From Desulfotomaculum sp. (GTDB lineage: Bacteria; Bacillota; Desulfotomaculia; Desulfotomaculales; Nap2-2B): a stretch of DNA of 64,000 bases. Of this stretch, positions 9,981-25,985 are shown one piece after another (within the stretch, counting starts at the first letter, position 1; every line of letters starts with the position of its first letter). The notes under the pieces are model-generated. The model searched no databases. It worked only from the letters and a program-made list of their open reading frames with translations, and was not told where the DNA came from. The stretch covers positions 38,553 through 102,552 of the forward strand of contig DMZI01000068.1 in assembly GCA_003485325.1 (NCBI GenBank), read 5' to 3'. Both the position numbers and the translations under genes were made by a program.

Positions 9981-9981
9981 C

Positions 9982-10022: not shown

Positions 10023-10033
10023 GTTGTTAAATA

Positions 10034-10087: not shown

Positions 10088-10115
10088 TAAATTAAATATA
10101 AGGAGATTTCCAGTT

Positions 10116-11870
10116 ATGAATTTGAGAGAATTAAACAGTTTGATTAAGGTGGCGATGGGAGAAGAAAAGGCGGATTTAGTGCTCCAAAACGGCTCACTGG
10201 TTAACGTATATACGGGCGAAATACTGGAAGAACATTCTGTGGCCGTCAAGGGGGAAAGAATAGCCTGGGTAGGCAAAGACGACAGGAATGTTACAGGGCC
10301 TGAGACGAATGTTATCGACTGTACAGGGAAATTTATCATCCCGGGATTTATAGACGGCCACACCCATTTAATTCTTTTCTATCAGGCGGATCAGTTTCTT
10401 AGATATGCGATGCGGGGCGGGACTACCACAATAATTACAGAACTGATGGAAATCAGCTTTCCGCTTGGATATCAGGGAATTCTGGAATATCTGGAATCCC
10501 TTAAAAACCAGCCCATAAAGATTTTTGGTGTGGCGCCTCCGATGGTTACAAACAGCTTAAGGACGCGATCAAGAGCGATTAACCTTGATCAGATTGCCGA
10601 ACTGCTCAAACGTGATGATATTTTAGGTTTGGGAGAAACATACTGGTCAGCCGTAATTGAACGGGATGAAAAGATACTGGAGTTTTTTGTTGAGACTTTC
10701 AAGGCGGGCAAGATAATTGCGGGCCATACGGCCGGCGCCAGGGGCAACAGGCTTACAGCTTATGCGGCGGGAGGTGTCCGGTCGTGCCATGAGCCAATCA
10801 CCGCGGCGGATGTTTTGGAAAGGTTAAGGCTGGGTCTTTATGTACTGATCAGGGAAGGAGGTATCCGGAAAGAACTGGCGGAAATATCGAAAATAAAGGA
10901 TCTGCAGCTCGATCTGAGACAATTGATTCTATCCACGGACAGTATTACTCCTGAGCAAGTGGTAGAGGAAGGTTATATGGAAGCAGTGGTCCAGAAAGCC
11001 GTCGACCTTGGTTTTGATCCTGTTTGCGCTATCCAAATGGCTACACTAAACGTGGCCAAATACTGGAATCTGGATCATCTAATTGGTGGTATTGCGCCCA
11101 GCAAATATGCAGATATCATTATTCTGCCGGATCTGTACAATATAAAAGCCGAGTATGTAATCAGCAACGGCAAGGTTTTATCAAAAGAAGGCAAACTTCT
11201 TTTAGAACCAAGTAAATATACATTTCCGGCCTGGGCGCATAAAAGTATGCGGCTGACCAAGAATTTTGGACCTGAGGACTTTGAAATAAATGTTAAAAGC
11301 AACAGCGACCCTGTAAGAATCAGAGTAATTGAACAAATAACTGAACTGGTGACAAAGGAAACAATCCTGGAAGTCCCCGTCCTGGAGGGAAAAATCAAGG
11401 TTGATTTGGATAAAGACTTAATAAAAATTGCTGCTGTAGATTTTCTGGATGACCAGTTAAAAATGTTTGTCGGGTTAATCAAGGGCTTTCGGATGAAGAA
11501 AGGGGCGTTTGCCAGCAGCATGGCCTGGGATTTGACTAATATAGTGGTCATAGGAGCTGACGAAAAGGATATGGCGGTTGCTGTCAACAGGGTTCTAGAA
11601 CTTCAGGGAGGTATCGTGGTCTGTTCAAATGGTAAAATACTGGCTGAACTACCCATGTCCATAGGAGGTTACATGAGCAATCTTCCGATTGAAGAAATCG
11701 TCCAAAACCTTAAAGATATTCAAAAAGAGGCATCAGGTCTTGGCATCCCCTTCCCTGATGCGGAACTAAGCTTAAATACCCTGACAACTTCCGCAATACC
11801 ATTTTTCCGGATTTGCGAGGAAGGCTTTTATGATCTGAAAAACAACCGTTTGGTTGGCCTGCTGGTTTAA
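10116..11870 (+). CDS. ade: adenine deaminase
   Basis: 584 aa. It has the amidohydrolase metal motif IPGFIDGHTHL, and its length and the CHEP region are typical of the Ade family. An AAGGAG RBS is present. Confidence 0.9.
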   Translation: MNLRELNSLIKVAMGEEKADLVLQNGSLVNVYTGEILEEHSVAVKGERIAWVGKDDRNVTGPETNVIDCTGKFIIPGFIDGHTHLILFYQADQFLRYAMRGGTTTIITELMEISFPLGYQGILEYLESLKNQPIKIFGVAPPMVTNSLRTRSRAINLDQIAELLKRDDILGLGETYWSAVIERDEKILEFFVETFKAGKIIAGHTAGARGNRLTAYAAGGVRSCHEPITAADVLERLRLGLYVLIREGGIRKELAEISKIKDLQLDLRQLILSTDSITPEQVVEEGYMEAVVQKAVDLGFDPVCAIQMATLNVAKYWNLDHLIGGIAPSKYADIIILPDLYNIKAEYVISNGKVLSKEGKLLLEPSKYTFPAWAHKSMRLTKNFGPEDFEINVKSNSDPVRIRVIEQITELVTKETILEVPVLEGKIKVDLDKDLIKIAAVDFLDDQLKMFVGLIKGFRMKKGAFASSMAWDLTNIVVIGADEKDMAVAVNRVLELQGGIVVCSNGKILAELPMSIGGYMSNLPIEEIVQNLKDIQKEASGLGIPFPDAELSLNTLTTSAIPFFRICEEGFYDLKNNRLVGLLV

Positions 11871-12097
11871 AGTAAACTGAAAAAAGGGCAAACTGCCTTT
11901 TTGCCATGGTATAGGCGTCGGTTGTGTAGGGTTTGTTTCTGGAGCGGGGTATGCAATTTACAGAACAGATCTTCCGCACTCGGCGGCTATTAACAGCCTT
12001 CCGATTTCTTACGAAAAAATCTGGAAGGCAATTCGGGATAAGAAAAAAGAGATTCAAACTACCGGTTAATGTTTATATAGATTTGCAGGTGAGATTA

Positions 12098-12436
12098 ATG
12101 CGGCCTGTTTTTAAGATTTGGCTTGAGAATAACGGAAAAGTTTTTGGCGAAGGGCCTTTGGAGATTTTGCAAAAAGTTGAGAAAACGGGTTCTCTAAGAA
12201 GTGCAGCCGCACAGATGGGGATGTCTTATAATAAGGCCTGGCGCTTGATTGCCGCTCTTGAAGAAAGGTTGGGGTATTCTCTTTTAGAGAAAAGAGTTGG
12301 CGGAGCATGCGGCGGTGGCTCAAAAGTCACCCCGTATGCCCAACAGTTAATGAAAAGGTATTCCGAACTCAAGGAAGAAGCTGAAATTGTGCTAGAAAAG
12401 CTTTACCTTAAGCATTTTGAAGGGTTTAAGACCTAA
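12098..12436 (+). CDS. ModE N-terminal-domain-like (LysR-type wHTH) molybdate-responsive regulator
   Basis: 112 aa from the ATG with an AGGTGAG RBS. LEILQKVEKTGSLRSAAAQMGMSYNKAWRLIAALEERLGYSLLEKRVGGACGGGSKVTPYAQQL matches the ModE/MopA N-domain pattern. The upstream in-frame extension to 11933 looks non-coding. Confidence 0.7.
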   Translation: MRPVFKIWLENNGKVFGEGPLEILQKVEKTGSLRSAAAQMGMSYNKAWRLIAALEERLGYSLLEKRVGGACGGGSKVTPYAQQLMKRYSELKEEAEIVLEKLYLKHFEGFKT

Positions 12437-12467
12437 ACTAAAGCACTGTTATATTTTTTTATATCCA

Positions 12468-12487
12468 TTATACTAATATGAGTATAA
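12468..12487. promoter_or_regulatory. inverted repeat TTATACT-N6-AGTATAA (ending ...TATAACG), candidate ModE-type operator overlapping a TATACT -10
   Basis: Read directly, 64 nt upstream of the 12551 start. It resembles the TATAT-N-TAYATAACG architecture of E. coli ModE sites. Confidence 0.3.
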
Positions 12488-12550
12488 CGCTGTTAAAGAA
12501 ATGGATGCTTGACGCAGGTTTGGAATAAGTCTTGTTAAAGGAGAAACACC

Positions 12551-13600
12551 ATGCAGGCAAAAACAGTTAACCTTGAAGATGCGGTAGGCAGAATCCTTTC
12601 TCACGATCTGACCAAAATCGTCCGCGGTAAGTTTAAGGGACCTGCTTTTCGCAAAGGCCACCTTATTTGTCGTGAAGACATTGAAGAATTACTAAAAATG
12701 GGAAAAGAAAATGTTTATGTCTTGGAGCTTGCCGAAGATGAATTACACGAAGATGATGCCGGAATTCGCCTGGGAGCAGCCGCAGCCGGGGCAGGGATTA
12801 AGTGCTGCCAGCCAAAAGAGAGCAGGGTTTCTCTTTTTGCCGAATATGCTGGCCTGCTCAAAATTAATCTGGCTGTTCTTGAGGCGGTTAACGACCTTCC
12901 GGAGGTTGTTCTGTCTACCCTGCCTAACAACACACCGGTAATAAAAGGGGAAATGGTAGCCGGCACAAAAGTCATCCCGCTGGCCGTCAAGGAAGATATT
13001 ATAATATCGGCTGAGAAAATATGCAGGGAAAGCGGCGGAATTCTCCGTATAGCGCCGTATCAAAAATTAAAGGCAGCTGTTATCGTAACCGGCAGTGAGG
13101 TTTATTCGGGCAGGATTAAGGATGAATTTGGTCCGGTTTTAAAGGAAAAAATAGAATCCTTTGGCTCAACGGTGGACGAGATCGAATATGCTCCTGATAA
13201 TGCTCAGGAGATCAGCAGGTTGATTAATGGGGCAATCGACCGGGGAGCAGAAATTGTTCTGGTCAGTGGAGGTATGTCAGTTGATCCTGACGACGTAACA
13301 CCGCTGGGGATCAGACTTAGCGGGGCTGTAATAGAAAAATACGGGGCACCGGTTCTTCCGGGAGCAATGTTTTTACTGGCCTATAAAAAGGATGCTGCTG
13401 TTTTAGGAGTGCCGGCCTGCGGGATGTTTTTCAGGACTACCGTGTTGGACATTGTCCTGCCGCGCTTGTTTACCAAAGAAAAGGTTAAAAAGTATGATCT
13501 GGTTGCCCTGGCTCATGGCGGACTATGCAGGAGCTGTCCTGAATGCCGTTATCCGAGGTGCAGCTTCGGTTTGGCCGGATCCGGTTTTCAACTTGCCTAA
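12551..13600 (+). CDS. molybdopterin-binding (MoeA/MogA-like) protein with C-terminal CxxCxxCxxxxC cluster
   Basis: 349 aa. The N-terminus resembles a MoeA-like domain and the centre resembles a MoCF-biosynthesis domain (IVLVSGGMSVDPDD). The C-terminus reads CRSCPECRYPRC. Confidence 0.7.
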   Translation: MQAKTVNLEDAVGRILSHDLTKIVRGKFKGPAFRKGHLICREDIEELLKMGKENVYVLELAEDELHEDDAGIRLGAAAAGAGIKCCQPKESRVSLFAEYAGLLKINLAVLEAVNDLPEVVLSTLPNNTPVIKGEMVAGTKVIPLAVKEDIIISAEKICRESGGILRIAPYQKLKAAVIVTGSEVYSGRIKDEFGPVLKEKIESFGSTVDEIEYAPDNAQEISRLINGAIDRGAEIVLVSGGMSVDPDDVTPLGIRLSGAVIEKYGAPVLPGAMFLLAYKKDAAVLGVPACGMFFRTTVLDIVLPRLFTKEKVKKYDLVALAHGGLCRSCPECRYPRCSFGLAGSGFQLA

Positions 13601-13669
13601 AAGAGGAGTGATAACGGGTGTGTTTTCTGACTACTCGCGTCACGAATAACAGAAAGAGGTGCTTATGAG

Positions 13670-14458
13670 GTGCTTATATTGAAGATAAAAGTATATATCA
13701 AAATATTCGCGGTTGCATTTTTATGTCTAGCTTTAACAGGATGTGCACAAACAAAAAAGACAGAAGCTCCAGAAACTCTTTTTATATACTGCGGTTCCGG
13801 GCTATCGAAGCCCGTCCAAGAAATTGGAGAAGCTTTTGAAAAAAGGACAGGAACGGAAGTCACTTTTACTTTTGGCGGTTCAGCGCAGCTGGCCGGCCAG
13901 ATCCTTTTAACAAGGAAAGGCAATTTGTTCATCCCAGGTGATTTGAAGGACCTTGCGCCGGTGGAAGAAAAAGGATTAATAAATAAAAAGGCAAATATAG
14001 TTTACCATATTCCTGCGCTGGCAGTTCCCAAAAGCAACCCTGCCGGTATACACGGACTGATGGATCTGAAGCTTCCGGGCGTGAAGGTTGCCCTTGGCGA
14101 TCCCAAGTCATGCACGATAGGAAAAGTCGCCGATACTATGCTGCAGGAAAACCAAATTTATGATGACGTTGAAAAAAACGTTGTGGTCCGGACGGCGACG
14201 GCGAGAGAACTGGTCTTGTATTTAAGCACCGGGCAGGTGGATGCAGCTGTAATCTGGAAGGAGAACATTATTAATTGTAAGGACAAAATTGAATTAATAC
14301 CAGTTCCGGAATTAGATAGCTTTACTAAGATAGTCCCTGCTGCTATACTTACCTTTTCAGAACAAAAGGAAGCAGCCGAGCAGTTTTTAAATTTCCTCAA
14401 CACCGAAGAAAGTAAAGAAATCTGGAATAAATGGGGTTATCAGACAGTCGAAAGATAA
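13670..14458 (+). CDS. modA: molybdate ABC transporter substrate-binding lipoprotein
   Basis: 262 aa with the lipobox LALTGC and the ModA-like FGGSAQLAGQI region. It is followed by modB and modC. Confidence 0.85.
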   Translation: MLILKIKVYIKIFAVAFLCLALTGCAQTKKTEAPETLFIYCGSGLSKPVQEIGEAFEKRTGTEVTFTFGGSAQLAGQILLTRKGNLFIPGDLKDLAPVEEKGLINKKANIVYHIPALAVPKSNPAGIHGLMDLKLPGVKVALGDPKSCTIGKVADTMLQENQIYDDVEKNVVVRTATARELVLYLSTGQVDAAVIWKENIINCKDKIELIPVPELDSFTKIVPAAILTFSEQKEAAEQFLNFLNTEESKEIWNKWGYQTVER

Positions 14459-14497
14459 AAAACCCTTTTAGATTTAAAAGAAGGGAGGCTTAAAACT

Positions 14498-15289
14498 ATG
14501 AAGCTTTTCAGGATAACTAATATTATCATAACCTGCCTTCTTTGTTTGTTTATCCTAACAGCAGTTTGTACAGTGCTTGTAAGGGGCGTCCCTGAATTAT
14601 ACAGGGCGTTGAAAACTCCTGAAATTATATTTGCCCTGAAATTGAGCCTTTTTACATCAACAATTTCAACATTCTTATGTCTAATAGTTGCCTTGCCGGT
14701 TGCTTATACACTGAGCCGTTACAATATTCCAGGACAAGGTATGTTGGGGGCTGTCTTAAGGATACCTTTAAATTTACCGCCTATAGTTTCTGGGGTTTGT
14801 CTTTTGCTGCTGTTCGGTACGACACATTTTGGCAAAACAATGGAGAAAATAGGCCTGGACCTAGTTTTCACTGTTCAGGGTATTGTTGTAGCCCAGTTCT
14901 TTGTCAATTCACCAGGGCTCGTTACAGTGCTTAAAGGAGCCCTGGAATCTGTAGATGCAAGGCTTGAGTATGTTGCCAGGACACTTGGCTGCAGCCCCTG
15001 GCAGGCTTTTTGCAGGGTTACCATTCCCTTGATTAGAAACAGCGTGATTGCCGGTTTGGTGCTTGCCTGGGGGAAGGCCCTTGGAGAATTCGGGGCGGTT
15101 TTAATGCTTGCCGGCGCAATCAGGTTTAAAACCGAAACCCTCCCTATTTCAATTTTTTTAAACATGTCTACCGGTGATCTTGATTTGCTTATGGCTTCCG
15201 CTTCCATTTTGGTGCTCGTTTCTATACTGTCACTTCTGTTTTTTGAAAAAGCAGGAAATAAATTGTTTTGGCGGGTGTATGGACCATGA
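14498..15289 (+). CDS. modB: molybdate ABC transporter permease
   Basis: 263 aa, multi-TM, with the EAA-type loop RTLGCSPWQAFCRVTIP. Confidence 0.9.
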   Translation: MKLFRITNIIITCLLCLFILTAVCTVLVRGVPELYRALKTPEIIFALKLSLFTSTISTFLCLIVALPVAYTLSRYNIPGQGMLGAVLRIPLNLPPIVSGVCLLLLFGTTHFGKTMEKIGLDLVFTVQGIVVAQFFVNSPGLVTVLKGALESVDARLEYVARTLGCSPWQAFCRVTIPLIRNSVIAGLVLAWGKALGEFGAVLMLAGAIRFKTETLPISIFLNMSTGDLDLLMASASILVLVSILSLLFFEKAGNKLFWRVYGP

Positions 15290-16374
15290 CAGGCTATCTT
15301 AAAAATGAGGGTAAATTATTATTACAAGGTGTAACCAAGCGAATTGACGATTTTCACTTAAAAGATATCACTCTGGAGATTGCCCCGGGTGAATATTTCA
15401 TCCTCTTAGGCCCGTCTGGCGCTGGTAAAACAGTATTGTTGGAAACTATTGCCGGAATATATTCACCGGATCAGGGCGAGATATGGCTTGGCGGTATAAA
15501 CATAACCGTTCAGCCACCTGAAAAAAGGAGGTTTGGTTTTGTTTATCAGGACTATATGCTTTTCCCCCATCTTAATGTTGAGCAAAATATTTATTTTGGG
15601 CTCAGAAAAAAAAGAAAGCCTGGCAGCACTTTAGCTGGGATGGTGGAACATGTGGTATCTTTTCTTAAAATAGGCCACCTCCTTAATAGGTTCCCCCACA
15701 CCTTAAGCGGCGGGGAGCAGCAGCGGGTAGCCTTAGCCCGGGCACTTGCAATGGAACCACCGGTTTTGTTGATGGATGAACCGTTATCATCTTTAGATCC
15801 CCAAAGCAGGGAATCGCTTCAGCAGGAACTATCGGAACTTCATAAAATAACAAACATACCTACTATCCATGTAACGCATAATTTTGAGGAAGCATACTTT
15901 TTTGCAGACAGGGTAGGTGTAATGGATAAAGGCAGGATATTGCAGACAGGTAAACCACAGGAAATCTTTCCGCGGCCCTGTTCTGCAGAGGTGGCCAGTT
16001 TTGTTGGGGCGGAGAATGTCTTTTACAGTGATTTAATTTATAAAAACGGCAAGAAATTTGTCAGTTTAGGAAAGTCGATTTTAGAAGTAACAACCAACCT
16101 GTTTGGCAGAGTCGGATATTCAATAAGGCCGGAGCATATTTTGTTAAGCCTATCGCCGAAACCTGGAAACTGTTTAAAGGGAAGGATTGTTTCCGTTAAT
16201 TCAAGAGGTTTATTTTCCAAGCTAATTGTAGATGTCGGTGTTAAAATTAATGTTCTTTCCTTTCAGGAACATAATACTGGCCTGACTGCCGGAAAAGAAG
16301 TATACTGCTTTATTCCATATTGGGATATAAATATTTTCGATAACGGGGGCTATCTCGATGAAGCATGTCTATGA
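15286..16374 (+). CDS. modC: molybdate ABC transporter ATP-binding protein with C-terminal TOBE-like domain
   Basis: It has Walker A GPSGAGKT, the signature LSGGEQQRV and Walker B LLMDEP. The ATG at 15286 overlaps the modB stop (ATGA). The longest ORF starts at the TTG at 15268. Confidence 0.9.
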   Translation: MTGYLKNEGKLLLQGVTKRIDDFHLKDITLEIAPGEYFILLGPSGAGKTVLLETIAGIYSPDQGEIWLGGINITVQPPEKRRFGFVYQDYMLFPHLNVEQNIYFGLRKKRKPGSTLAGMVEHVVSFLKIGHLLNRFPHTLSGGEQQRVALARALAMEPPVLLMDEPLSSLDPQSRESLQQELSELHKITNIPTIHVTHNFEEAYFFADRVGVMDKGRILQTGKPQEIFPRPCSAEVASFVGAENVFYSDLIYKNGKKFVSLGKSILEVTTNLFGRVGYSIRPEHILLSLSPKPGNCLKGRIVSVNSRGLFSKLIVDVGVKINVLSFQEHNTGLTAGKEVYCFIPYWDINIFDNGGYLDEACL

Positions 16375-17500
16375 AAGTCTGCTTGATGCGCTGAAAACAG
16401 GTGACAGACCTGTATTGGTCACTCTGGTTTTTCGCAATGGAGATATTCTGCCGCCGCCGGGAAGTAAAAAATTATTCATTAAAAACAAGACGGTTGGAAA
16501 TCTTGAAACAGAGTGGCTTAACGGGGATATTGAACGTCTGGCTGAACAATCTAGAAAAACTAACCGTCTGGAAAAAACGGATGTATTTTTCCCGGGGGAT
16601 AAAGAAATATACTGTACACTTGTTGCAGAACCCATTTATGGAGTTGAAAAGCTATTTGTTTTGGGAGGCGGGAATATAGCACGTCCTTTGGTGCGTTTGG
16701 CTGATCTGCTAGGGTATCATGTTACTGTAGTTGATGACAGGCCAGAATACGCTAATTATGAACGCTTTCCTGAAGCCCGTGAAGTTATCTGCAGTGAATT
16801 TTTAGCTTATCTTGAAAATATGCCGGTAGATTTGTGGACCAGTGTTGTTATAGTTACCCGTGGTCACCAGTATGATTTACTCTGCCTTGAAGCGTTATCA
16901 GCACGTGAAATGGCCTATCTGGGCATGATTGGCAGCAAACAAAAAGTCGAAATGTCCAGAAAACATTTGCTGGCTGCAGGTATACCAACCGATAAAATAA
17001 AAATGATCCATGCTCCTATCGGGCTGGATATCGGTGCTCAAACCCCGGAGGAAATTGCTGTCAGCATAACAGCTGAGCTAATTAAAGCAAGGCGCGGTGG
17101 GAAGGCTCTTTCCTTATCGGAGGATTCAAATGACGGAAAGAAAGTTGAAGGCTACCTTCAGGGCAGTTCCCCCGCAACAAGTGATCTTTACCTGTTTGAA
17201 ACTGTCTTAACACGCATTAATGAGGGTTTGCCGGCAGCGCTTGCCACAGTGGTATCAACTTCGGGTTCGACACCCCGCAAAGCAGGCGCAAAAATGATGG
17301 TATCCCCGGATGGAGCAATAACAGGTACAATCGGCGGCGGGGTTTTTGAGGAAAAAGTTCGTCAGCTATCTGTCTCCATACTTGAAACCGGCCAGGCAGA
17401 ATTATATAGTTTTCAACTTGATAATAAATCAGCTGCTTCCCTGGGAATGCTCTGCGGCGGAGGAATGGAAGTTTTTATCGAACCTGTGAAAGGGGAGTAG
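16358..17500 (+). CDS. xdhC: XdhC/CoxI-family molybdenum hydroxylase maturation protein
   Basis: 380 aa with an XdhC_CoxI-like N-domain, a Rossmann segment (FVLGGGNIARPLVRLADLLGYHVTVVDDRPE) and a second XdhC_CoxI-like C-domain. It overlaps the modC 3' end by 17 nt. Confidence 0.85.
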   Translation: MKHVYESLLDALKTGDRPVLVTLVFRNGDILPPPGSKKLFIKNKTVGNLETEWLNGDIERLAEQSRKTNRLEKTDVFFPGDKEIYCTLVAEPIYGVEKLFVLGGGNIARPLVRLADLLGYHVTVVDDRPEYANYERFPEAREVICSEFLAYLENMPVDLWTSVVIVTRGHQYDLLCLEALSAREMAYLGMIGSKQKVEMSRKHLLAAGIPTDKIKMIHAPIGLDIGAQTPEEIAVSITAELIKARRGGKALSLSEDSNDGKKVEGYLQGSSPATSDLYLFETVLTRINEGLPAALATVVSTSGSTPRKAGAKMMVSPDGAITGTIGGGVFEEKVRQLSVSILETGQAELYSFQLDNKSAASLGMLCGGGMEVFIEPVKGE

Positions 17501-17506
17501 ACTAAC

Positions 17507-18346
17507 TTGAAAAATGTTCTTGTATTAATTAAAGGAGCTGGCGACCTTGCGAGCGGAGTAGCTCACCGCCTGTACAGGTGCGGGTTTATTCCGGTAATGA
17601 CGGAACTCGAAAAGCCCCTTGTAGTTAGAAGGAAAGTTGCTTTCGCCGAGGCCGTTTACTCCGGTGAAACAACGGTTGAGGGGGTTCGTGCCGAGCTTTG
17701 CAGTTCAATAAGTGATATTTCAAGCTTGCAGAAAAAGAAAATTATACCCGTAGTTATTGATCCGCAAGGAGAGCTTGTGCGTATTTTAAAGCCTGACGTT
17801 TTGATTGATGCTGTTATGGCAAAACGTAATACAGGAACAAAGATTACCGACGCGCCTGTTGTAATTGCGTTAGGTCCCGGTTTTACAGCCGGAGTTGATG
17901 TTCACGCCGTTATTGAAACGAAAAGAGGCCACGAACTGGGGAGAGTGATCCTGGAAGGGACTCCACAAGAAGATACCGGCGAACCACATATGGTAAATGG
18001 CTACACTTATCAAAGACTGATCAAAGCTCCTCAAGAAGGTGTTTTTATTTCATACTGTTCTATTGGAGAGATAGTTGAAAGCGGACAGATAATTGGCTAT
18101 ATCGAAGGCCGCCAGGTACAGACTCAAATTAAAGGTGTTTTACGAGGCCTTGTTGCAGACGGGTGTATTGTAAAAGAGGGAATGAAAATAGGAGATGTGG
18201 ATCCCAGATGCAAACCCGAGTACTGCTATACAATAAGTGATAAAGCCAGGGCAGTTGCCGGAGGGGTACTGGAAGCGATGCTTGATAGGGTACTTGACTG
18301 GGTGTTGAACAAAAAAGTTTCGGGTGGTGCTGGATTTGTTAATTGA
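17507..18346 (+). CDS. yqeB: selenium-dependent molybdenum hydroxylase system protein, YqeB family
   Basis: 279 aa. The N-terminus VLIKGAGDLASGVAHRLYRCGF, the length, and the position between xdhC and yqeC fit the YqeB-specific domain, which is fused to XdhC in E. coli YqeB. Confidence 0.75.
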   Translation: MKNVLVLIKGAGDLASGVAHRLYRCGFIPVMTELEKPLVVRRKVAFAEAVYSGETTVEGVRAELCSSISDISSLQKKKIIPVVIDPQGELVRILKPDVLIDAVMAKRNTGTKITDAPVVIALGPGFTAGVDVHAVIETKRGHELGRVILEGTPQEDTGEPHMVNGYTYQRLIKAPQEGVFISYCSIGEIVESGQIIGYIEGRQVQTQIKGVLRGLVADGCIVKEGMKIGDVDPRCKPEYCYTISDKARAVAGGVLEAMLDRVLDWVLNKKVSGGAGFVN

Positions 18347-19124
18347 ATACCCGACTTCATCTTTTCGTCAGGCAATGAATCTTTCTCCACGAGAATTGGT
18401 GGCTTTTGTTGGAGGAGGGGGTAAAACCACTGCTCTGCAATGTCTGGCCAAAGAACTATACGCTTCCAAGAAAAAAGTTGCTCTAACGACTACCACAAAA
18501 ATGCTCCTGAAACAGCTTTATTTTCAGGGAGGCTGTATTATTTCCGGCGACTACATTGAAATAGAAGAAAAAGTCAGTAGCCGGAATGGTTCTATACCGT
18601 TGATTGCCCTGATAAAAGAACAAATGTCTCAAGAAAAAATTTGTGGTCTACCACCGGAGTGGGTTGACAGGTTATGGAATCTTGATAAAGTTGATTATCT
18701 TGTTGTTGAAGCCGATGGCAGCCGCGGGAAATCATTGAAAGCTCCGGCTAATCATGAACCTCAAATACCCGGCGAAGCTACCCTGGTAGTGCCTGTTGTT
18801 GGTCTTGACATATTGAACAAGCGGCTGACAGCTGAATTTGTCCACCGTCCGGAACTGGTTTCCCTGCTCTGCGATGCAGCACAGGGTTCTGTAATCATAA
18901 CCGGGACAATCTCAAAGATAATTGTTCATCCTCTCGGATTAAAAAAAGGAGTTCCTGCCGGGGCAAGGTTTATACCATTGATTAATAAAGTTGACGTGGC
19001 AGAGGATTGGTCGGTTGCCAGAACACTCGCGATAGAGATTTTTAAGTCTGATAAGGATATTGAAAGAGTCATTTTGGCAAGTTTTATACAAAATAGTTTT
19101 TCTGTGATCCGCCGCTCCAATTAA
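18324..19124 (+). CDS. yqeC: selenium-dependent hydroxylase accessory protein, YqeC family (P-loop)
   Basis: 266 aa with VAFVGGGGKTT and VVEADGSRGKSLKAPANHEP. An alternative start is the ATG at 18375. Confidence 0.75.
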   Translation: MVLDLLIEYPTSSFRQAMNLSPRELVAFVGGGGKTTALQCLAKELYASKKKVALTTTTKMLLKQLYFQGGCIISGDYIEIEEKVSSRNGSIPLIALIKEQMSQEKICGLPPEWVDRLWNLDKVDYLVVEADGSRGKSLKAPANHEPQIPGEATLVVPVVGLDILNKRLTAEFVHRPELVSLLCDAAQGSVIITGTISKIIVHPLGLKKGVPAGARFIPLINKVDVAEDWSVARTLAIEIFKSDKDIERVILASFIQNSFSVIRRSN

Positions 19125-19145
19125 ATTCTACCGGGGGAGTGCTTT

Positions 19146-19757
19146 TTGAGCAATTTTATTTCAGCTGTTATTTTAGCAGCGGGACAGGGAACAAGAATTG
19201 GCCGGCAAAAACTTCTCCTGACACTTGGCGGGAAAACAATAATCGAAATTGCAGTTGCTGCCGCACTGGGATCGAAGGTCAGTGAAACAATAGTTGTTTT
19301 AGGCCACCAGTCTGAAGAGATTGCCCAAGTTTTAAAAGGTCTGCCTGTCAAAACGGTTTTCAACCCCGATTACCGTTTAGGGCAAAGCACTTCCTTGATT
19401 TCCGGAATAAAGGCGATAAATCCTAAATCCGATGCATTCCTGGTTGTTCTGGGCGACCAGCCCTTCGTAACCTCTTTGTTGATCGATCAACTTATTGATT
19501 TTTATGAAAGATCTTTATGCCTCATTGCCAGGCCGCAATTTCAGGAAATACCCGGCCACCCAGTGCTTTTTAATACCAGTCTTATCCCGGAATTGTTAAA
19601 CAATTTAAAAGGAGATATTGGAGCCCGCGAAATAATCGCCCGTCATCAGGACAAGGTCAGTTTAATGCGGATTAAAAATGAGTCTGCGTCTAAGGACATT
19701 GATACATACGGTGATTATCAGACCGCTAAAGAATATTATTCAAAGACCTTAAAGTAA
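19146..19757 (+). CDS. mocA: MobA-like nucleotidyltransferase (YgfJ/MocA, molybdenum cofactor cytidylyltransferase family)
   Basis: 203 aa with the N-terminal AVILAAGQGTRIG..K motif and LGDQP. A GGGGGAG RBS is present. Confidence 0.8.
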   Translation: MSNFISAVILAAGQGTRIGRQKLLLTLGGKTIIEIAVAAALGSKVSETIVVLGHQSEEIAQVLKGLPVKTVFNPDYRLGQSTSLISGIKAINPKSDAFLVVLGDQPFVTSLLIDQLIDFYERSLCLIARPQFQEIPGHPVLFNTSLIPELLNNLKGDIGAREIIARHQDKVSLMRIKNESASKDIDTYGDYQTAKEYYSKTLK

Positions 19758-19892
19758 ATAACAAGAGATTTATCAGGTTGTACTAAGCAGGAGTGCAGAT
19801 GTAGCCTCGTAATACATAAAATCCGGTGGCTGAGCCAGTCGATACGGGGCGAAGGCGGAAGGTATAAAGAACAGACTGACCGTTCGGCTTTT

Positions 19893-19923
19893 CACCCATC
19901 GGCGGAGTATCAGCGGCGACAGG
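19893..19923. repeat. weak B-tail-like repeat fragment (CACCCATCGGCGGAGTATCAGCGGCGACAGG)
   Basis: It resembles CATCGGAGTAAGCGGTGACAATG (27314-27336) and CACCGGAGTAAGCGGCGATAAAT (46977-46999). Divergent. Confidence 0.3.
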
Positions 19924-20107
19924 TATTATTATTGATTAATCATATAGATCGGGTTTATAATAAACCCAATTATCTTCGCAAGGTGGAAAGAAAATTAAAC
20001 AGAAGTGACTTCTAAACCAGCCGGACAGGGGATTACAAAAAGAGCCCGTGTCTTTAATTCTTTAATATTGAATCTAAAAAAAGTTTACAAATTTATAGGG
20101 CAACTTC

Positions 20108-20148
20108 TAAGGCTTGACAATTTAAAAGTGTTTAAGTCTTATTTTTTT
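20108..20148 (+). terminator. hairpin TAAGGCTT-N18-AAGTCTTA followed by a T-run (second copy of the cassette terminator, after the ygfJ/mocA operon)
   Basis: Read directly. It has one mismatch in the stem relative to 9982-10013. Confidence 0.4.
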
Positions 20149-20159
20149 GTCGCAAAATA

Positions 20160-20213
20160 TACAAATTTATTGTAATTATTTTGATTTGACCAGTTATCTG
20201 ATTCTTTTATTAT
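20160..20213 (+). promoter_or_regulatory. palindrome TACAAATTTATTGTA (20160-20174) plus putative sigmaA promoter TTGACC-16-TATTAT (20186-20213)
   Basis: Read directly. An extra half-site TACAAATTTAT lies at 20086-20096, and a 5'-UTR hairpin ATTAATGC-N14-GCATTAAT lies at 20221-20250. Confidence 0.45.
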
Positions 20214-20300
20214 TAAATTAATTAATGCAGCTTGCGGTGCAGGCATTAATACATTGCCGAAAGCAACTTGTTAAAAGTTAATATAAAGGAGAGTAATTTT

Positions 20301-20684
20301 ATGGAAGATGAAAAAGATGCGGTTTGTTGGCAGGACGGAGGTGTAAACCCTTCTCATGAAACCCCGACCCTTATTAAAGCTGCCCATGAACGTGAGCATA
20401 AACATGACATAGAACATTATCTCGATGAAATCAAGAAATGGGAGTACTGTTATTGCGCGAATTGCAGGCAAATGAGATTTAGTACGGAACTTGAGGCAAC
20501 AGAGAACGGGATTCGCTGCGCCAAATGCAAAAGTTATAACCTGGAAGCCCCTGGCTGGGTTGTTTGCCCTTATCACAAAGATTCATTGGTTAAGTGCGCC
20601 CGGGCGGGTAAGGGAATAGTGAAATTAAAGCATGAAGCCGAGTGTAGGGATCACTGCCATTTTCGGGTAACCAAGGAAAAGTAA
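20301..20684 (+). CDS. hypothetical Cys-rich (10 Cys) zinc-ribbon-like protein, first gene of the hydroxylase operon
   Basis: 127 aa from the ATG with an AAGGAGAG RBS. Motifs are CYCANC...CAKC (ribbon-like pair), then C..H, C and CRDHCH. I recognise no family. Confidence 0.6.
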   Translation: MEDEKDAVCWQDGGVNPSHETPTLIKAAHEREHKHDIEHYLDEIKKWEYCYCANCRQMRFSTELEATENGIRCAKCKSYNLEAPGWVVCPYHKDSLVKCARAGKGIVKLKHEAECRDHCHFRVTKEK

Positions 20685-20794
20685 TAAAAGCTGGAAAAAT
20701 ACGATTTTAACAATTTGTAAGAAGAGGTGGTACAGGAAACTAGGGATAGTCGGGGTTTTTAGTGTTTGAAAAATTGCGAAGAGGTGATCAAAAC

Positions 20795-21664
20795 ATGTAT
20801 CTGCCAAATTTTGAATATTTTCAGCCGGATAGTATTGAGGAAACCTGCCAATTGTTGTCACAGTTTGGTTCCAAAGCCAAATTGTTCGCCGGCGGGACCG
20901 ATGTTATCATCAAGATGAAAAAAGAGTTGTTGTCGCCGGAAATCCTCGTCTCCATCGAGAAAATCGACCAATTGAAAAAAATCGAGTATGTACCCGGCAA
21001 AGGCGTTGTTATCGGAAGCGGAGTTACCCATAACGATTTAGTCTATTCAGAGCTTTTGCATGAAAAATACCTGTCCATATCCGAAGCGGCCCGGCAAATG
21101 GCGAACAACCAGGTGCGAAACCTCGGCACCGTAGGCGGCAATATCGGCAGCGCCGTACCTTCCGCCGATCTGCCGCCGATACTCATCGCCCTTGGCGCAA
21201 CCGTTAAAATTACGGGTGTGAAGGGAGATCGGACCATGGATCTGGAAGATGTGTTCATCGGTCCCGGTAAGACCGTTTTGGCACAAGACGAAATTATCAC
21301 CGAAGTAGTCATCCCCGACCAGAAAATGACCGGCAGCAATTACATCAAATTCGGGCTGCGGGCATCGGGCGCCTTAGCCGTGGTTGGTGTGGCGGCAGCA
21401 GTTCAAGTTGAAAACAATGCCATCAAAGAGGCGAGAATAGTACTGGGAGCGGTTTCACCCACACCGGTGCGGGCAAAAAAAGCCGAAGAGTTCCTGAAAG
21501 ACAAGAAAATCAGCGACGAACTATTGGCCGGAGCCGGGGTCATTGCCTCCGGGGAATGCGTGCCTATCACAGACATACGGGCCTCGGCCGAATACCGTAA
21601 AGACATGGTGCGCGTCTTTACCAGGCGGGCATTGCGCAAAGCTATCGACGAAGGGCATGCTTAA
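20795..21664 (+). CDS. xanthine dehydrogenase family FAD-binding subunit (CoxM/XdhB-like)
   Basis: About 289 aa from the ATG with an AGAGGTGA RBS. It has FAGGTDVIIKMK and GTVGGNIGSAVPSADLPP, and a C-terminal CO dehydrogenase flavoprotein domain (SAEYRKDM). Confidence 0.9.
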   Translation: MYLPNFEYFQPDSIEETCQLLSQFGSKAKLFAGGTDVIIKMKKELLSPEILVSIEKIDQLKKIEYVPGKGVVIGSGVTHNDLVYSELLHEKYLSISEAARQMANNQVRNLGTVGGNIGSAVPSADLPPILIALGATVKITGVKGDRTMDLEDVFIGPGKTVLAQDEIITEVVIPDQKMTGSNYIKFGLRASGALAVVGVAAAVQVENNAIKEARIVLGAVSPTPVRAKKAEEFLKDKKISDELLAGAGVIASGECVPITDIRASAEYRKDMVRVFTRRALRKAIDEGHA

Positions 21665-21680
21665 GAAAGGGGCGCTGAAA

Positions 21681-22178
21681 ATGTTAAAGTTCGTTACAGA
21701 TAAAGACGGAGTCAAACGTTATTTAGTTTCATTAAAAGTTAACGGCAACGAGTATACAAGGATGGTTAAAGCCAACAGCCTGCTGGTAAACTTCTTGCGG
21801 GAGGAGCTTGACCTTACCGGAACTAAAAAGGCGTGCGAACAGGCCGATTGCGGCGCCTGCACCGTGCTGCTGGATGGGAAACCGGTCAACTCCTGCATGA
21901 TCCTGACCATCAACGCCGACGGGCGGGAAGTCATAACTGTCGAAGGTCTCGCTACAAATGGAAAGCTGGACATACTCCAGGAAAAATTCATAGAACACTC
22001 GGCGCCGCAATGCGGCTACTGCACTCCCGGCATACTCATGTCGGCCAAAGCGTTGCTTAATCGCAATCCCCACCCAACCGAATATGAAGTACGCGAGGCT
22101 ATAGCAGGCAACCTGTGCCGTTGCACAGGATATGTCAATTACGTCAAGGCAATTTTAGACGCGGCAGAAAATCAATAA
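21681..22178 (+). CDS. xanthine dehydrogenase family (2Fe-2S)-binding subunit
   Basis: 165 aa with CEQADCGACTV (plant-type cluster) and CGYCTPG...CRCTGY (second cluster). Confidence 0.9.
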   Translation: MLKFVTDKDGVKRYLVSLKVNGNEYTRMVKANSLLVNFLREELDLTGTKKACEQADCGACTVLLDGKPVNSCMILTINADGREVITVEGLATNGKLDILQEKFIEHSAPQCGYCTPGILMSAKALLNRNPHPTEYEVREAIAGNLCRCTGYVNYVKAILDAAENQ

Positions 22179-22186
22179 AGAAAGGA

Positions 22187-24526
22187 ATGGGAACATTGAG
22201 CGAAAAACATTCCTATGTTGGAAAAAACCTTCAGAGAACTGACGTACTGGATAAGGTGACCGGGCGCGGCAAATTTACCGCCGACCTCAAATTTTCTAAC
22301 ATGTTGTATGGAAAACTTATTTACAGCACGCATGCTCACGCGCGAATTTTAAATATCGACACATCCGAAGCTGAAAAACTGCCCGGTATAAAGGCCATTA
22401 TTACCGCCAAAGACGTGCCCTCGATAAGATACGGGCTTAGCCCCGCCCGCTATGACGAAAACATATTTTGCATCGACACAGTCAAATTTTATGGTGATAA
22501 AATAGGCGCTGTGTGTGCGATTGATGAAGATACGGTATATGAAGCCCTCAAGTTGATTAAAGTAGAATACGAAGCGCTGCCGGCCGTATTTACTCCCGCT
22601 GAAGCGGCTGCAGAAGGCGCGCCGCAAATCTTTGAGGAATACCCGCGCAACCTTAACACAGAAATTCACCAGCATTTCGGTGATTGCGACAAAGCACAGG
22701 AAGAAGCCTACTACGTGCGCACCGACCGCTTTCAGGGACAACGCACGATACACGGCGTCATCGAACCACACTGCACAATCGCCTACTGGGAAGGGAAAAG
22801 AGTAATTGTTCATGCCGCCCACCAGTCAGTCCACTACCTGCAGCATCACCTAGCCCGGATTTTAGGAATGAAAGAAGGCGACATACGCGTAATCACCCCC
22901 TATGTGGGCGGCGGTTTCGGCGGAAAACTCGATGTCAGCGGCCTGGATATTTCAGCCATTATCCTTTCCAAAATAACCGGCCAGCCGGTCAAAATGGCTT
23001 ATGACCTGGAAGAAGTTTGGCTAAACGGCCGCGGCCGTCACGGCATGGATATGGAATACACCACCGGCGTAACCAAAGAAGGAAAAATCCTCTTCGTAAA
23101 AAATGAGATTGTCATAGACGGCGGCGCGTACACTGGTCTGGGTATAGCCTCGGCTTACTACGCGGGAGCCCTGCTGACCGTGTTGTATAATTTCGATAAC
23201 TACAAGTTTGACGCGTATAGGTACGTAACCAACCTGCCGCCCTGCGGCGCACAAAGAGGACACGGGCAGCCGCACCCGCGCTACGCTTTTGAAAGCCACT
23301 TGGATCACATCGCTGAAGATCTTGGTATAGACCCGATCGAGATACGTATAATCAATGCCCGCAAATCCGGTGATGTAACACCAAACGGATACGAACTAAA
23401 GTCATATTTCTTGAAAGAAGCAAATGAACTGGCGCGGGACGCCTCCGGGTGGAAAGACAAGAAAGGCAAGATGGCCAAGGGCAGAGGCATCGGCGTCGGC
23501 AACGGCGGTTTTGTTTCCGGCGCGGGTTTCTGTCAGTACCGGACCGACCTGCCGCACTCGATAGCCATGATCAAAGTGTATGACGACGGTTCCCATGCGA
23601 TCGTATATACCAATGCAGTCGATATTGGTCAGGGCAGCGATACGGTGCTCAGACAGATGGCCGCCGAGGGGATGGGTTATCCATACGACGACATCTCTAT
23701 CGTGTCCCATGATACCGACCTGGCTACCCTTGATTTTGGCGCTTATGCCAGCCGGCAGACCTTGATGGCCGGCTGGGCGGTAAAAAGAGCGGGAGAAGAT
23801 GTCAAGAGAAAAATTCTTGAGATGGCGGCGGAAATGATTAAAGTCAAGGAGGATGGCGGTTACCGCTCGGGCAAGTTGATGCCGGAAGAACTGGACTGCA
23901 GGGAAGGCATCGTATTTATGAAGCAGGAACCGGCTGTTAAAATAACCTTTGCCGAAGTGGCCCGTGCTTATTTTGTGAAAAACGGTTTGTTGATTGGGCG
24001 CGGCTATTACCACCCCGGCAAACTGGGCGGCCAGCACAAAGGGGCGGCGGTTGGCACGTCCCCGGCCTACAGCAGTGCGACCCAGGTTTCCGAGGTGACT
24101 GTTGATGAAGAAACCGGTATGGTAAAAGTTCTCAATACTTGGGACGTGCACGACAGCGGCGTCGCAATCAACCCGAATTTGTTGCACGGACAGGTGCACG
24201 GCGCCTTTGCCATGGGCATTGGTGAGACCCTCTGGGAAAAAGTAATGTTTGATGAAAAAGGAAAACTGCTCAACGGGAACTATGCTGAATACCGGCTGCC
24301 GACCGCGCTGGATATGCCGCCGGTGCATTCAATGATCTTGGATACTTTCGAACCCAACGGGCCTTATGGCGCGAAAGAAGTTGGCGAGGGCGCCACCACC
24401 CCGACCTTGGGTTGTGTTGCCAACGCTGTTTACGACGCCACAGGAGCCAGGGTATCCAGTCTGCCGCTTACTCCGGAGAAGGTCTGGCGCGCCATGAAGG
24501 AAAAAAGAGAGCGCGAAGAAAAGTAA
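22187..24526 (+). CDS. xanthine dehydrogenase family molybdopterin-binding large subunit (candidate selenium-dependent purine hydroxylase)
   Basis: About 779 aa with GKNLQRTD..KVTG, YVGGGFGGK, GQGSDT and AKEVGEG near the C-terminus. The start is uncertain (ATG 22187 or TTG 22196). Confidence 0.9.
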   Translation: MGTLSEKHSYVGKNLQRTDVLDKVTGRGKFTADLKFSNMLYGKLIYSTHAHARILNIDTSEAEKLPGIKAIITAKDVPSIRYGLSPARYDENIFCIDTVKFYGDKIGAVCAIDEDTVYEALKLIKVEYEALPAVFTPAEAAAEGAPQIFEEYPRNLNTEIHQHFGDCDKAQEEAYYVRTDRFQGQRTIHGVIEPHCTIAYWEGKRVIVHAAHQSVHYLQHHLARILGMKEGDIRVITPYVGGGFGGKLDVSGLDISAIILSKITGQPVKMAYDLEEVWLNGRGRHGMDMEYTTGVTKEGKILFVKNEIVIDGGAYTGLGIASAYYAGALLTVLYNFDNYKFDAYRYVTNLPPCGAQRGHGQPHPRYAFESHLDHIAEDLGIDPIEIRIINARKSGDVTPNGYELKSYFLKEANELARDASGWKDKKGKMAKGRGIGVGNGGFVSGAGFCQYRTDLPHSIAMIKVYDDGSHAIVYTNAVDIGQGSDTVLRQMAAEGMGYPYDDISIVSHDTDLATLDFGAYASRQTLMAGWAVKRAGEDVKRKILEMAAEMIKVKEDGGYRSGKLMPEELDCREGIVFMKQEPAVKITFAEVARAYFVKNGLLIGRGYYHPGKLGGQHKGAAVGTSPAYSSATQVSEVTVDEETGMVKVLNTWDVHDSGVAINPNLLHGQVHGAFAMGIGETLWEKVMFDEKGKLLNGNYAEYRLPTALDMPPVHSMILDTFEPNGPYGAKEVGEGATTPTLGCVANAVYDATGARVSSLPLTPEKVWRAMKEKREREEK

Positions 24527-24592
24527 TCCGGGCATTGTAGGGGGCTTTAAAATGAACCAAAAAGAAATTGATGAAATCAATAAAACTATACC

Positions 24593-25043
24593 TTAGATCT
24601 GATGACTGGCGTTGAAACCGCCGCCGGGACCATGTTGCTTGTTTCCAAAGATAGGTTTTGGCAAATTCATTTTTACATCAACCGTATCGATAATGTAATG
24701 GTTAAATAATACCATTGCATTTCGATTATTGGGCGGTTTTGAAAATGTCAATGCAGCAAGAAAAGAATCAAGCCTAAAAGTTTTAAAGGAACGGTTTTCT
24801 TTTGTTGCATTTAGGATAGTTTCAGTCCTTGATAGAGAAAAGCAGGTTTCTTTTGGAAGCCTGTTTTTTATTGCTTCGTTTAAAAAATAGGACAAAAAAT
24901 AATGGTCTGACAAAAGCAATGAAAAAAATTTCATTTTTTAAACCCAATCGGTCATGAACAGGTGACGAACCGCTATGGTATGCAGTAAAAGAATTACATA
25001 TTATTTTATTTAAAGACTTAAAGTAACACCGGTTCCAGTTCAT
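24593..25043 (-). pseudogene. frameshifted hypothetical ORF pair in an AT-rich spacer (possible gene or mobile-element remnant)
   Basis: Two overlapping - strand ORFs (24822-25043 and 24593-24934) would join with a single frameshift. The region is low GC and I recognise no family. Confidence 0.3.
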
Positions 25044-25136
25044 TTTTGCCGCCGGTTAGAAAAAGGTTTATGTAACCGGCAGGAGAATATTTAATGTATA
25101 TAAAATTATGATCAGAGAACCTGCATATTATAGAGT

Positions 25137-25985
25137 ATGCTTCTAGCAAGAAATGAATTGGGAAGGACAGGAAAATTGAGAGATTCAAGGCCTATCGGTT
25201 TGTTTGATTCGGGATTGGGAGGGCTTACTGTATCCCGGGAAATATTCAGCCTGATGCCCGATGAATCAACCATTTACTTCGGGGATACACTGCATGTGCC
25301 CTACGGATCTCGCAGCATACAGGAGCTAATTAATTTTGCTGATCAAATAATTGCTTTTCTGGTAAGTTGTAATGTAAAATACATTGTCTTTGCCTGCAAT
25401 ACAAATTCATCGCTTTCTCTTCAGGCCATGAGAAAACGGTATCAAGTTCCCATGAAAGGCTTGATTGAACCAGGAGCGAAACTGGCCGTGAGCTCCACTG
25501 TGAATAAAAGGGTTGGCATCATCGCAACGGAGGCGACTGTAAACAGCCAGGCATACCAGCGCGCAATCAATTCATTGAATCCGTCTGTTTCTGTTTTTGC
25601 CCAGCCTGCCCCGCTTTTAGTTCCTCTGGTAGAGGCCGGGATGTCGGAAACCCAAAAGGTGTTTGACGCTGTATGTGAATATGTGAGTCCGTTAAAATCA
25701 GCTCATATAGATACTCTAATCCTCGGCTGTACCCATTATCCGTTTCTGCTTGCGCATTTCCGGAAGTGCCTTGGTCCGGAAATTGTTTTTATCGATCCCG
25801 CTGCAGCAGCAGTTTTAGAATCAAAGGAAGATATGAGCAGTTTAAATCTGTTGAAAAAATCATCAAAGGTCGCTCCCAGTCATCGTTATTTTGTAAGCGG
25901 GGACCCTGCCGATTTTGCTTTTAAAGCAGAAAGCCTGGGTTGCGGCCGGATTACAGTTGAACGTATCGTGCTGGATAAGAGCTGA
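25137..25985 (+). CDS. murI: glutamate racemase
   Basis: It has GLFDSGLGGLTV, FACNT and LGCTHYP catalytic Cys motifs. The start may be the TTG at 25176. Confidence 0.9.
   Translation: MLLARNELGRTGKLRDSRPIGLFDSGLGGLTVSREIFSLMPDESTIYFGDTLHVPYGSRSIQELINFADQIIAFLVSCNVKYIVFACNTNSSLSLQAMRKRYQVPMKGLIEPGAKLAVSSTVNKRVGIIATEATVNSQAYQRAINSLNPSVSVFAQPAPLLVPLVEAGMSETQKVFDAVCEYVSPLKSAHIDTLILGCTHYPFLLAHFRKCLGPEIVFIDPAAAAVLESKEDMSSLNLLKKSSKVAPSHRYFVSGDPADFAFKAESLGCGRITVERIVLDKS

Follow-up and report, generated by a model that had tools for sequence, protein, structure and literature searches.

A small cysteine-rich protein family linked to molybdenum hydroxylase gene clusters of anaerobic bacteria, with a candidate role in enzyme maturation

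Background

What could a protein of 127 amino acids (aa) with ten cysteines be doing at the head of a putative molybdenum hydroxylase operon? The question is raised by a stretch of 64,000 nucleotides from Desulfotomaculum sp. (assembly GCA_003485325.1, contig DMZI01000068.1, positions 38,553 to 102,552 of the forward strand), hereafter referred to as the window, in which an open reading frame (ORF) at 20301-20684 (+) precedes the genes for the FAD, 2Fe-2S (FeS) and molybdopterin (Mo) subunits of an enzyme of the xanthine dehydrogenase (XDH) family. The name “small” is used here for the encoded Cys-rich protein and its homologues. A first-pass annotation of the window had proposed a fourth subunit, a metal or selenium chaperone or a small regulator; the evidence gathered here does not settle among the three, and leans towards an accessory or maturation role.

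Three accessory proteins of molybdenum hydroxylases that depend on selenium (SDMH), YqeB (TIGR03309), YqeC (TIGR03172) and YgfJ/MocA (TIGR03310), are given in the table and passages of Haft & Self 2008 (PMC2276186). Earlier work reports a phenotype for yqeB and none for yqeC. Small would add a component, of proposed function, to an already recognised class of system, namely the genes that are accessory to molybdenum hydroxylases. It may provide a new lead on how the Mo cofactor acquires sulfur or selenium, including the labile Se ligand of SDMH: being small, easily expressed, encoded between yqeB and yqeC throughout one clade and tracking one enzyme sub-type, it offers a concrete handle on the Se-ligand question. 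If it is a structural zinc protein and nothing else, the gain would be a modest one for annotation.

Results and discussion

A conserved gene and an unnamed protein family

The gene and its parts are the following.

20286..20293, + strand: ribosome-binding site (RBS) AAGGAGAG, read from the sequence, 7 nt ahead of the ATG of small
20301..20684, + strand, stop codon included: gene of the Cys-rich protein small (conservation, dN/dS 0.16, confident predicted fold for residues 36-122)
20301..20405, + strand: variable N-terminal region, residues 1-35, which many homologues lack and which is predicted disordered (residues 4-30 have a confidence score, pLDDT, below 50)
20406..20540, + strand: predicted helix and zinc-ribbon module, residues 36-80, C52-x2-C55-x17-C73-x2-C76 (Cys conservation; hairpins 49-60 and 64-73 in the structural model)
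20541..20666, + strand: second Cys4 module, residues 81-122, C89(P90)-x9-C99-x15-C115-x3-C119 (invariant residues, pLDDT above 90, no structural match)

Translation of 20301-20684 gives 127 aa and a stop, with Cys at positions 9, 50, 52, 55, 73, 76, 89, 99, 115 and 119, which agrees with the length and the ten Cys given in the first-pass annotation. The motifs that it quoted were all found (CYCANC at 50-55, CAKC at 73-76, VVCPYH at 87-92, VKC at 97-99 and ECRDHCH at 114-120), as was its strong RBS. Cys accounts for 7.9% of the residues vs 1.18% in the 37 ORFs of at least 200 aa of the window, and the core of the protein is mildly basic (isoelectric point, pI, 8.4). The dN/dS ratio is 0.16 against an orthologue of the same genus and 0.14 for a Dethiobacteria-type pair, the adjacent FAD gene giving 0.13 as a control. 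The gene is real and under purifying selection.

A word-indexed search of 5.8 billion proteins returned homologues in 10 clusters, and a profile search of 1.84 billion representatives returned 19 clusters at E<=0.001, including 15 at E<=1e-10. The matched clusters are stand-alone proteins of 53-129 aa; no fused form was seen among proteins of 227-2000 aa, which is weak evidence. Scanning one genome per species yielded 42 loci with homologues, labelled Pelotomaculum, Desulfotomaculaceae, Dethiobacteria, Syntrophomonadaceae, other Bacillota, Dehalococcoidia/Chloroflexota and Desulfobacteraceae. Y49, C55, C73, C76, C89, P90, C99, G103, C115 and C119 do not vary across an alignment of 53 sequences, in which C52 is conserved to at least 90%, whereas C9 and C50 are not conserved; just eight of the ten Cys are thus kept, and these form two Cys4 sites found across the Bacillota, Chloroflexota and Desulfobacteraceae labels. 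The first 35-45 residues of the homologues are variable or absent, with a motif P-x-H-x-x-P-T-L-I-K-A-x-H-E common to some relatives.

No Pfam model reaches its cut-off in a scan at E<=0.01 (best IBR, 16.9 bits vs 24.3) and the NCBIfam matches lie far below theirs (TFE-alpha 18.3 bits; yteA 16.2 bits for a cut-off of 134.4). Rubredoxin, ferredoxin and zf-dskA_traR models gave no match in Pfam at E<=0.01, and rubredoxin did not appear in the fold-search lists. The canonical XDH-family subunit models (PF00941/PF03450; PF00111/PF01799; PF01315/PF02738/PF20256) match the three downstream genes and not small, nor do the SDMH accessory models TIGR03309, TIGR03172 and TIGR03310 match it in the NCBIfam scan, in agreement with the earlier remark that such a gene is not known from either set. 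Judged by these searches, small is a new, tiny and unnamed protein family.

Predicted structure and the two Cys4 sites

The AlphaFold2 (AF2) model of small, built on the alignment, has a mean pLDDT of 79.3, 79 residues (essentially those from 36 to 122) exceeding 90 and a segment at residues 4-30 being disordered. A short helix (37-47) is followed by two hairpins carrying C52/C55 and C73/C76; the second half consists of four short strands and a helical turn that carry C89, C99, C115 and C119, and holds the conserved VKCPRAGKGI and EC-DHC-FR motifs. Foldseek against the PDB retrieved nothing at E<=0.001, LIM-type and other zinc fingers appearing at E>=0.55. Among 48,161 chains compared with VIA-align, 20 reached Z>=2 and none Z>=5; the best were TFIIE/RNF126-type zinc ribbons (Z 3.5, root-mean-square deviation 2.4-2.5 Å over 36-41 residues), superposed on residues 42-87 only, and no match from either program covers the second Cys4 module. 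Three chains (E 0.16-0.47) came from PDB sequences searched with the profile at E<=10, and from the ESM Atlas only unnamed clusters, at 0.88-0.90.

According to the model, the first Cys4 site is a zinc ribbon, CxxC-x17-CxxC. The second, C-x9-C-x15-C-x3-C, is without recognisable relative. The rubredoxin/Zn-ribbon-like pair that had been read from the letters thus stands for the first site, with its two CxxC knuckles at hairpin turns, and does not extend to the second. Both sites probably bind metal.

Gene neighbourhoods

The flanks of the 42 loci were searched by tblastn (at least 55 bits) with the window's own proteins and some of the neighbours' proteins as queries. FAD, FeS or Mo genes were found in the fetched flank of 24 loci; five others have only YqeB, YqeC, MocA, XdhC or MoCF there (cut contigs or a nearby YqeC), and five only a small protein with a glycine tail (Gly-tailed protein), ThiF/MoeB or MoeA. 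Linkage to XDH-family or yqeB/yqeC genes, which the first-pass annotation had named as the point to check, is prevalent: XDH-family or YqeB/YqeC/MocA/XdhC genes accompany small at 29 of the 42 loci. The following arrangements were distinguished.

Arrangement A (window, genome G105): XdhC-YqeB-YqeC-MocA, cassette, small-FAD-FeS-Mo
Arrangement A2 (same genus, genomes G107 and G108): adenine-deaminase-like-XdhC-small-FAD-FeS-Mo-MocA-like (31% identity)-homologue of the Gly-tailed protein-MurI
Arrangement B (Dethiobacteria-type): MoeA-small-89-94-aa protein ending GGG-ThiF/MoeB-FAD-FeS-Mo
Arrangement C (Pelotomaculum-type): FAD-FeS-Mo-small-MoCF domain-XdhC-(NifS)-YqeB-(YqeC)-MocA
Arrangement D (Syntrophomonadaceae-type, 15 loci): FAD-FeS-Mo-YqeB-small-YqeC-MocA, the shortest gaps being 3-6 nt
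Arrangement E (second copy in P. propionicicum): CysK-CysE-small-Gly-tailed protein-ThiF
Unlinked copies: e.g. flanked by a metallophosphoesterase gene and AddB/AddA, or, in Dehalococcoidia and Desulfobacteraceae, beside unknown genes

The adenine-deaminase-like and XdhC genes of arrangement A2 are visible in G108 only, the contig of G107 ending just past small. In arrangement D small is followed directly by YqeC and MocA at all 15 loci and preceded by YqeB at 12, the contigs of the other three beginning at or just before small. Clade D separates from the rest (support 99/97) in a maximum-likelihood tree whose 48 rows were all taken from these loci, only the partial L043 being omitted; the unlinked copies nest within the linked ones.

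Within one genus the accompanying module is swapped: genomes G000 and G105 have XdhC-YqeB-YqeC-MocA upstream, and G107 and G108 are without YqeB/YqeC genome-wide (L048 and L049 vs window 16358-25137), having instead, after the Mo gene, the 31%-identical MocA-like gene and the homologue of the Gly-tailed protein, which ends ...CFSKA, without the Gly tail. In one relative the locus looks decayed (L002/L049, on the same 60,075-bp contig), small matching only over residues 1-105, directly followed by the FAD subunit's final 79 residues, with the Mo gene in two pieces. Two paralogues of small (L051, 8300-8740; L053, 8401-8760; 47-50% identity) are flanked by a metallophosphoesterase gene and addB/addA; their genomes contain the enzyme cluster as well.

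Small follows one enzyme sub-type

The three genes downstream of small in the window are:

20762..21664, + strand: FAD-binding subunit, XDH family (PF00941, PF03450), colinear with CutM-type flavoproteins, no insertion
21543..22178, + strand: ORF of the 2Fe-2S subunit (PF01799, PF00111; NCBIfam gamma-subunit models)
22115..24526, + strand: molybdopterin subunit, similar to the alpha subunit of 4-hydroxybenzoyl-CoA reductase (4-HBCR; TIGR03194 925.2 bits, below the cut-off of 994.55)

The likelier start of the FAD subunit is an ATG with RBS at 20796, and the true start of the 2Fe-2S subunit lies later than that of the ORF, since the family matches start near residue 60 of the latter. The nearest solved chain of the Mo subunit is 1rm6_A (502 bits, the next giving 263 bits); the FAD subunit is of CutM/XdhB type, scores only 120 bits on TIGR03195 and is colinear with flavoproteins of 287-296 aa. 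Arrangements B and C share the Mo sub-type (901 and 939 bits on TIGR03194, 69-81% identity to the window's Mo subunit), and the partner of clade D is an XdhA-like enzyme (556-567 bits, 33-34% identity).

Among the 162 genomes of the class surveyed, 16 carry small. An alpha subunit scoring 880-932 bits on TIGR03194 occurs in 13 genomes, 12 of them with small, and an alpha above the cut-off (canonical) in 21, one of them with small. Of the 17 genomes of family f1, four have both small and an orthologous Mo subunit (at least 93% identity) and the other 13 have neither. Small was not detected by tblastn or six-frame hidden Markov model search in G155, G144 and G147 (91%, 90% and 79% complete), whose enzyme clusters have a 66-71% identical Mo subunit; in G127 the single copy lies away from the enzyme cluster, on a different contig and next to AddB/AddA. 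YqeB exceeds its cut-off in 74 of the 162 genomes, in 14 of the 16 carriers of small and in eight of ten further carriers reached through the loci. Small is in addition a marker of a separate and uncharacterised sub-clade of 4-HBCR-like enzymes in syntrophic and subsurface anaerobes.

A candidate accessory or maturation factor

The explanation that we consider the best, with a confidence somewhat short of even, gives small a dedicated accessory or maturation role, in the insertion of sulfur or selenium into the cofactor or in the assembly of the enzyme. It would be a lineage-restricted accessory component of the XDH-family molybdenum hydroxylase systems of anaerobes, most likely no catalytic subunit, with a core of about 90 residues holding two putative tetra-Cys metal sites, the zinc ribbon and the second Cys4 site. 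It may serve as a metal-stabilised adaptor when the Mo cofactor gets its labile S or Se ligand and enters the apo-enzyme, cooperating with the chalcogen-supply module of the genome, which would be XdhC, YqeB, YqeC and MocA in that of the window and the Gly-tailed protein with its ThiF/MoeB enzyme, or NifS, elsewhere.

This role is favoured because of the gene positions inside maturation modules and the existence of orthologous enzyme clusters without small. Maturation genes (for YqeC, the MoCF-domain protein, or the Gly-tailed protein with ThiF) are the downstream neighbours of small in three of the four main arrangements; at 12 loci of one clade small stands directly between YqeB and YqeC, and it keeps its place within one genus where another module replaces YqeB/YqeC. 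The accompanying modules all concern S or Se supply (YqeB/YqeC in a selD-positive genome, NifS, CysK/CysE, E1-like ThiF/MoeB), which would place small at the labile-chalcogen step. We infer in this way both the step at which it may act and any physical partner. The window's genome, the sole one checked for selD, holds this gene on another contig (L044, 383 bits) with one in-frame TGA, so that SelD is probably selenocysteine-containing; with selD, the genome is one that uses selenium.

A more specific version, in which small is a two-metal adaptor with eight Cys that couples interchangeable chalcogen-supply modules to the apo-enzyme, and hence a previously unrecognised component of the pathway, is possible but rather doubtful. 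So is the division of labour that goes with it, in which XdhC/YqeB/YqeC would supply Se and the Gly-tailed protein with ThiF/MoeB, or NifS, would supply S, the enzymes being the 4-HBCR-like clade and the second clade.

Several observations weigh against a maturation role. Eight of the 42 loci have none of the genes searched for in their flank, and small paralogues occur in unrelated contexts such as metallophosphoesterase-AddB/AddA. G107 and G108 (96% and 94% complete) have kept small with no YqeB above the cut-off. Small is also the first gene of the structural operon in the window and its genus, tracking the enzyme rather than YqeB, and its two clades mirror two enzyme clades, which fits a subunit equally well. 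Lastly, no homology to known maturation factors was found with Pfam, NCBIfam, the PDB profile search, Foldseek or VIA-align.

The Gly-tailed protein (89-94 aa, ending GGG; L008, 8417-8701; L004, 5587-5871; L010, 8422-8691; L014, 8753-9085) has a gene for a MoeB/UbaA-like ThiF enzyme just downstream, the pair sitting between small and the XDH genes; L010 holds a second such pair ahead of another XDH trio. The family was found in 14 of the 162 genomes, 11 of which also carry small. It has no Pfam or NCBIfam match, including no ThiS/MoaD match in Pfam at E<=0.01, and its AF2 model (mean pLDDT 49.4) is unusable, a ubiquitin-like fold being neither shown nor excluded; the protein may be a new thiocarboxylate-type carrier. 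The MoCF-domain protein was rejected as a specific partner of small, its family being present in 99 of the 162 genomes and therefore uninformative. Complex prediction of YqeB, YqeC and residues 36-127 of small with alignment inputs gave ipSAE values of 0.00 and 0.01 for a mark of 0.32, which says nothing either way.

The operons of the window and their shared cassette

Two further regions of the window bear on the regulation and content of the cluster.

20088..20224, + strand: shared upstream cassette (promoter/regulatory region), with a second copy at 9962-10098 ahead of the maturation operon
10116..19757, + strand: maturation operon behind the other cassette copy, with adenine-deaminase-like, ModE-like, MoCF-domain, ModABC-like, XdhC-like, YqeB, YqeC and MocA genes

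The two cassette copies, direct repeats D1/D2 of 79-84% identity, are the only ones in the 2.1-Mb assembly. The statement that small lies directly behind a shared cassette and ahead of the FAD, 2Fe-2S and Mo genes is borne out, the repeat being confirmed and the three genes following directly. A sigma-70-like TTGACC-16-TATTAT at 20186-20213 inside the cassette is a consensus match only, and no riboswitch turned up in either copy when 9000-25500 was scanned with Rfam. The one terminator-like site within 19700-20800 (19951-19967, between MocA and the FAD gene) is upstream of the cassette, which makes co-transcription of small with the FAD gene plausible; small thus plausibly heads the FAD, 2Fe-2S and Mo operon. 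An inverted repeat of 8 nt, ATTAATGC...GCATTAAT, its arms 14 nt apart, lies in the gap between cassette and RBS (20225-20300) and is absent at the other cassette copy.

YqeB and YqeC of the window score 359.5 bits on TIGR03309 (cut-off 220) and 163.2 bits on TIGR03172 (cut-off 73.05). The maturation operon opens with the adenine-deaminase-like gene (10116-11870, 372.9 bits vs a cut-off of 472.5), followed by the ModE-like regulator (11933-12436); the two hint at an N-heterocycle as substrate, although the Mo subunit is nearest to the 4-HBCR alpha subunit. At 19742-19917 (+ strand), overlapping both the spacer and the end of mocA, is a sub-threshold match to group II intron domains D1-D4 (RF02005, 42.6 bits, E 2e-9, gathering score 49), with no domain V/VI match found nearby. 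Between the Mo gene and murI, where relatives of the same genus have the MocA-like gene and the homologue of the Gly-tailed protein, lies a 113-aa ORF without family match (24593-24934, - strand).

Alternative explanations

The most serious alternative is that small is a fourth, non-canonical subunit or an electron-transfer partner, its Cys4 sites binding Fe in a rubredoxin-like manner and passing electrons to or from the FAD/FeS chain. We regard it as unlikely; what keeps it serious is the place of the gene in the operon of the window and the fact that small tracks one enzyme sub-type almost perfectly. Small heads the FAD-FeS-Mo operon in the window and in the loci of the same genus, accompanies the 880-932-bit alpha (12/13 genomes) and seldom the canonical one (1/21), and its two clades match the two enzyme clades; small Zn-ribbon scaffolding subunits do exist, and weak matches were obtained to BbsA (7pxp_A, E 0.16) and PhlB/MucB (Z 2.3-2.4). 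However, at 15 loci it is YqeC that directly follows small (with YqeB before it at 12) and the structural genes are not adjacent. Enzyme clusters with a 66-71% identical Mo subunit occur without small, while small occurs with no XDH genes nearby at L014, L051, L053, L007 and L015, and rubredoxin and ferredoxin models did not match it at E<=0.01.

Small could also be a zinc-finger regulator of the two cassette-bearing operons, binding DNA or RNA, or the RNA polymerase in the way of DksA/TraR. The helix followed by CxxC-x17-CxxC has the spacing of the DksA/TraR finger, the core is mildly basic (pI 8.4), the gene lies directly behind the shared cassette, and weak matches concern yteA (16.2 bits), DksA (1tjl, E 0.3) and TFIIE-alpha zinc ribbons. 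These matches are all far below cut-off, leaving Cys spacing and sub-threshold scores as the basis of a regulator function, which appears improbable. Helix 37-47 of the AF2 model is no long coiled coil, the cluster already has a ModE-like regulator, and the tight coupling between YqeB and YqeC at 12 loci would be atypical for a regulator; the cassette, moreover, is specific to the arrangement of the genus, while small is conserved across phyla.

The 4-HBCR of Thauera has an extra [4Fe-4S] cluster on a loop of its FAD subunit. Small might supply such a cluster in trans, allowing low-potential electron input for a reductive reaction, since the Mo subunit is nearest to the 4-HBCR alpha, the FAD subunit is of the ordinary CutM/XdhB type without the insertion (TIGR03195, 120 bits), and the second site gathers four Cys within 31 residues, with a Cys-Pro. 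The complementary distribution that this would entail was not found: TIGR03195 (HcrB-type) exceeds its cut-off in none of the 162 genomes, and 20 of the 21 genomes with a canonical alpha are without small. With, in addition, none of the three PDB chains from the profile search at E<=10 coming from 4-HBCR and the partner of clade D being XdhA-like rather than 4-HBCR-like, we hold this explanation for very improbable.

A chance or non-functional ORF is effectively refuted by conservation, given the dN/dS of 0.14-0.16, the Cys and Gly/Pro positions invariant across phyla, the strong RBS and a confident AF2 fold with pLDDT above 90 for 79 residues.

Comparison with known systems

Residues 42-87 of small superpose on zinc ribbons (TFIIE-alpha, the N-terminal finger of RNF126, the MetRS knuckle) with Z 3.1-3.5, sharing two CxxC knuckles on hairpins; the scores are low and limited to the first half of the protein, its second Cys4 module and whole arrangement being unmatched. 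The C4 zinc finger of DksA/TraR has the spacing CxxC-x17-CxxC after a helix, and this spacing is identical in small, which differs by the lack of a model match at E<=0.01 (yteA 16.2 vs 134.4 bits) and by an 11-residue helix without coiled coil.

FdhE for formate dehydrogenase and HypA for hydrogenase are small CxxC-pair proteins needed to assemble a specific redox enzyme. The likeness of small to them is by analogy only, no homology being detected in Pfam, NCBIfam or the PDB sequence search.

Small is absent from the table and passages of Haft & Self 2008 (PMC2276186) that deal with YqeB, YqeC and YgfJ, and no description of its family was found in the portions of the literature covered, including PMC2276186, PMC5322559 and PMC11448449. 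Like these three proteins it belongs to the same clusters, directly between YqeB and YqeC at 12 loci, occurs mostly in YqeB-positive genomes and is without assigned biochemical function. Unrelated to them in sequence, it has a far narrower distribution than YqeB (16 vs 74 of the 162 genomes) and is kept in two genomes that are without YqeB.

XdhC/PaoD-type proteins are chaperones of the sulfuration and insertion of the molybdenum cofactor. Small differs from them by an unrelated fold and size and by the lack of a recognisable cofactor-binding domain. It would resemble them as a dedicated non-catalytic helper encoded with XDH-family enzymes, and an XdhC-like gene is adjacent to it in several arrangements; since XdhC-like genes are also present, small would be no replacement for them.

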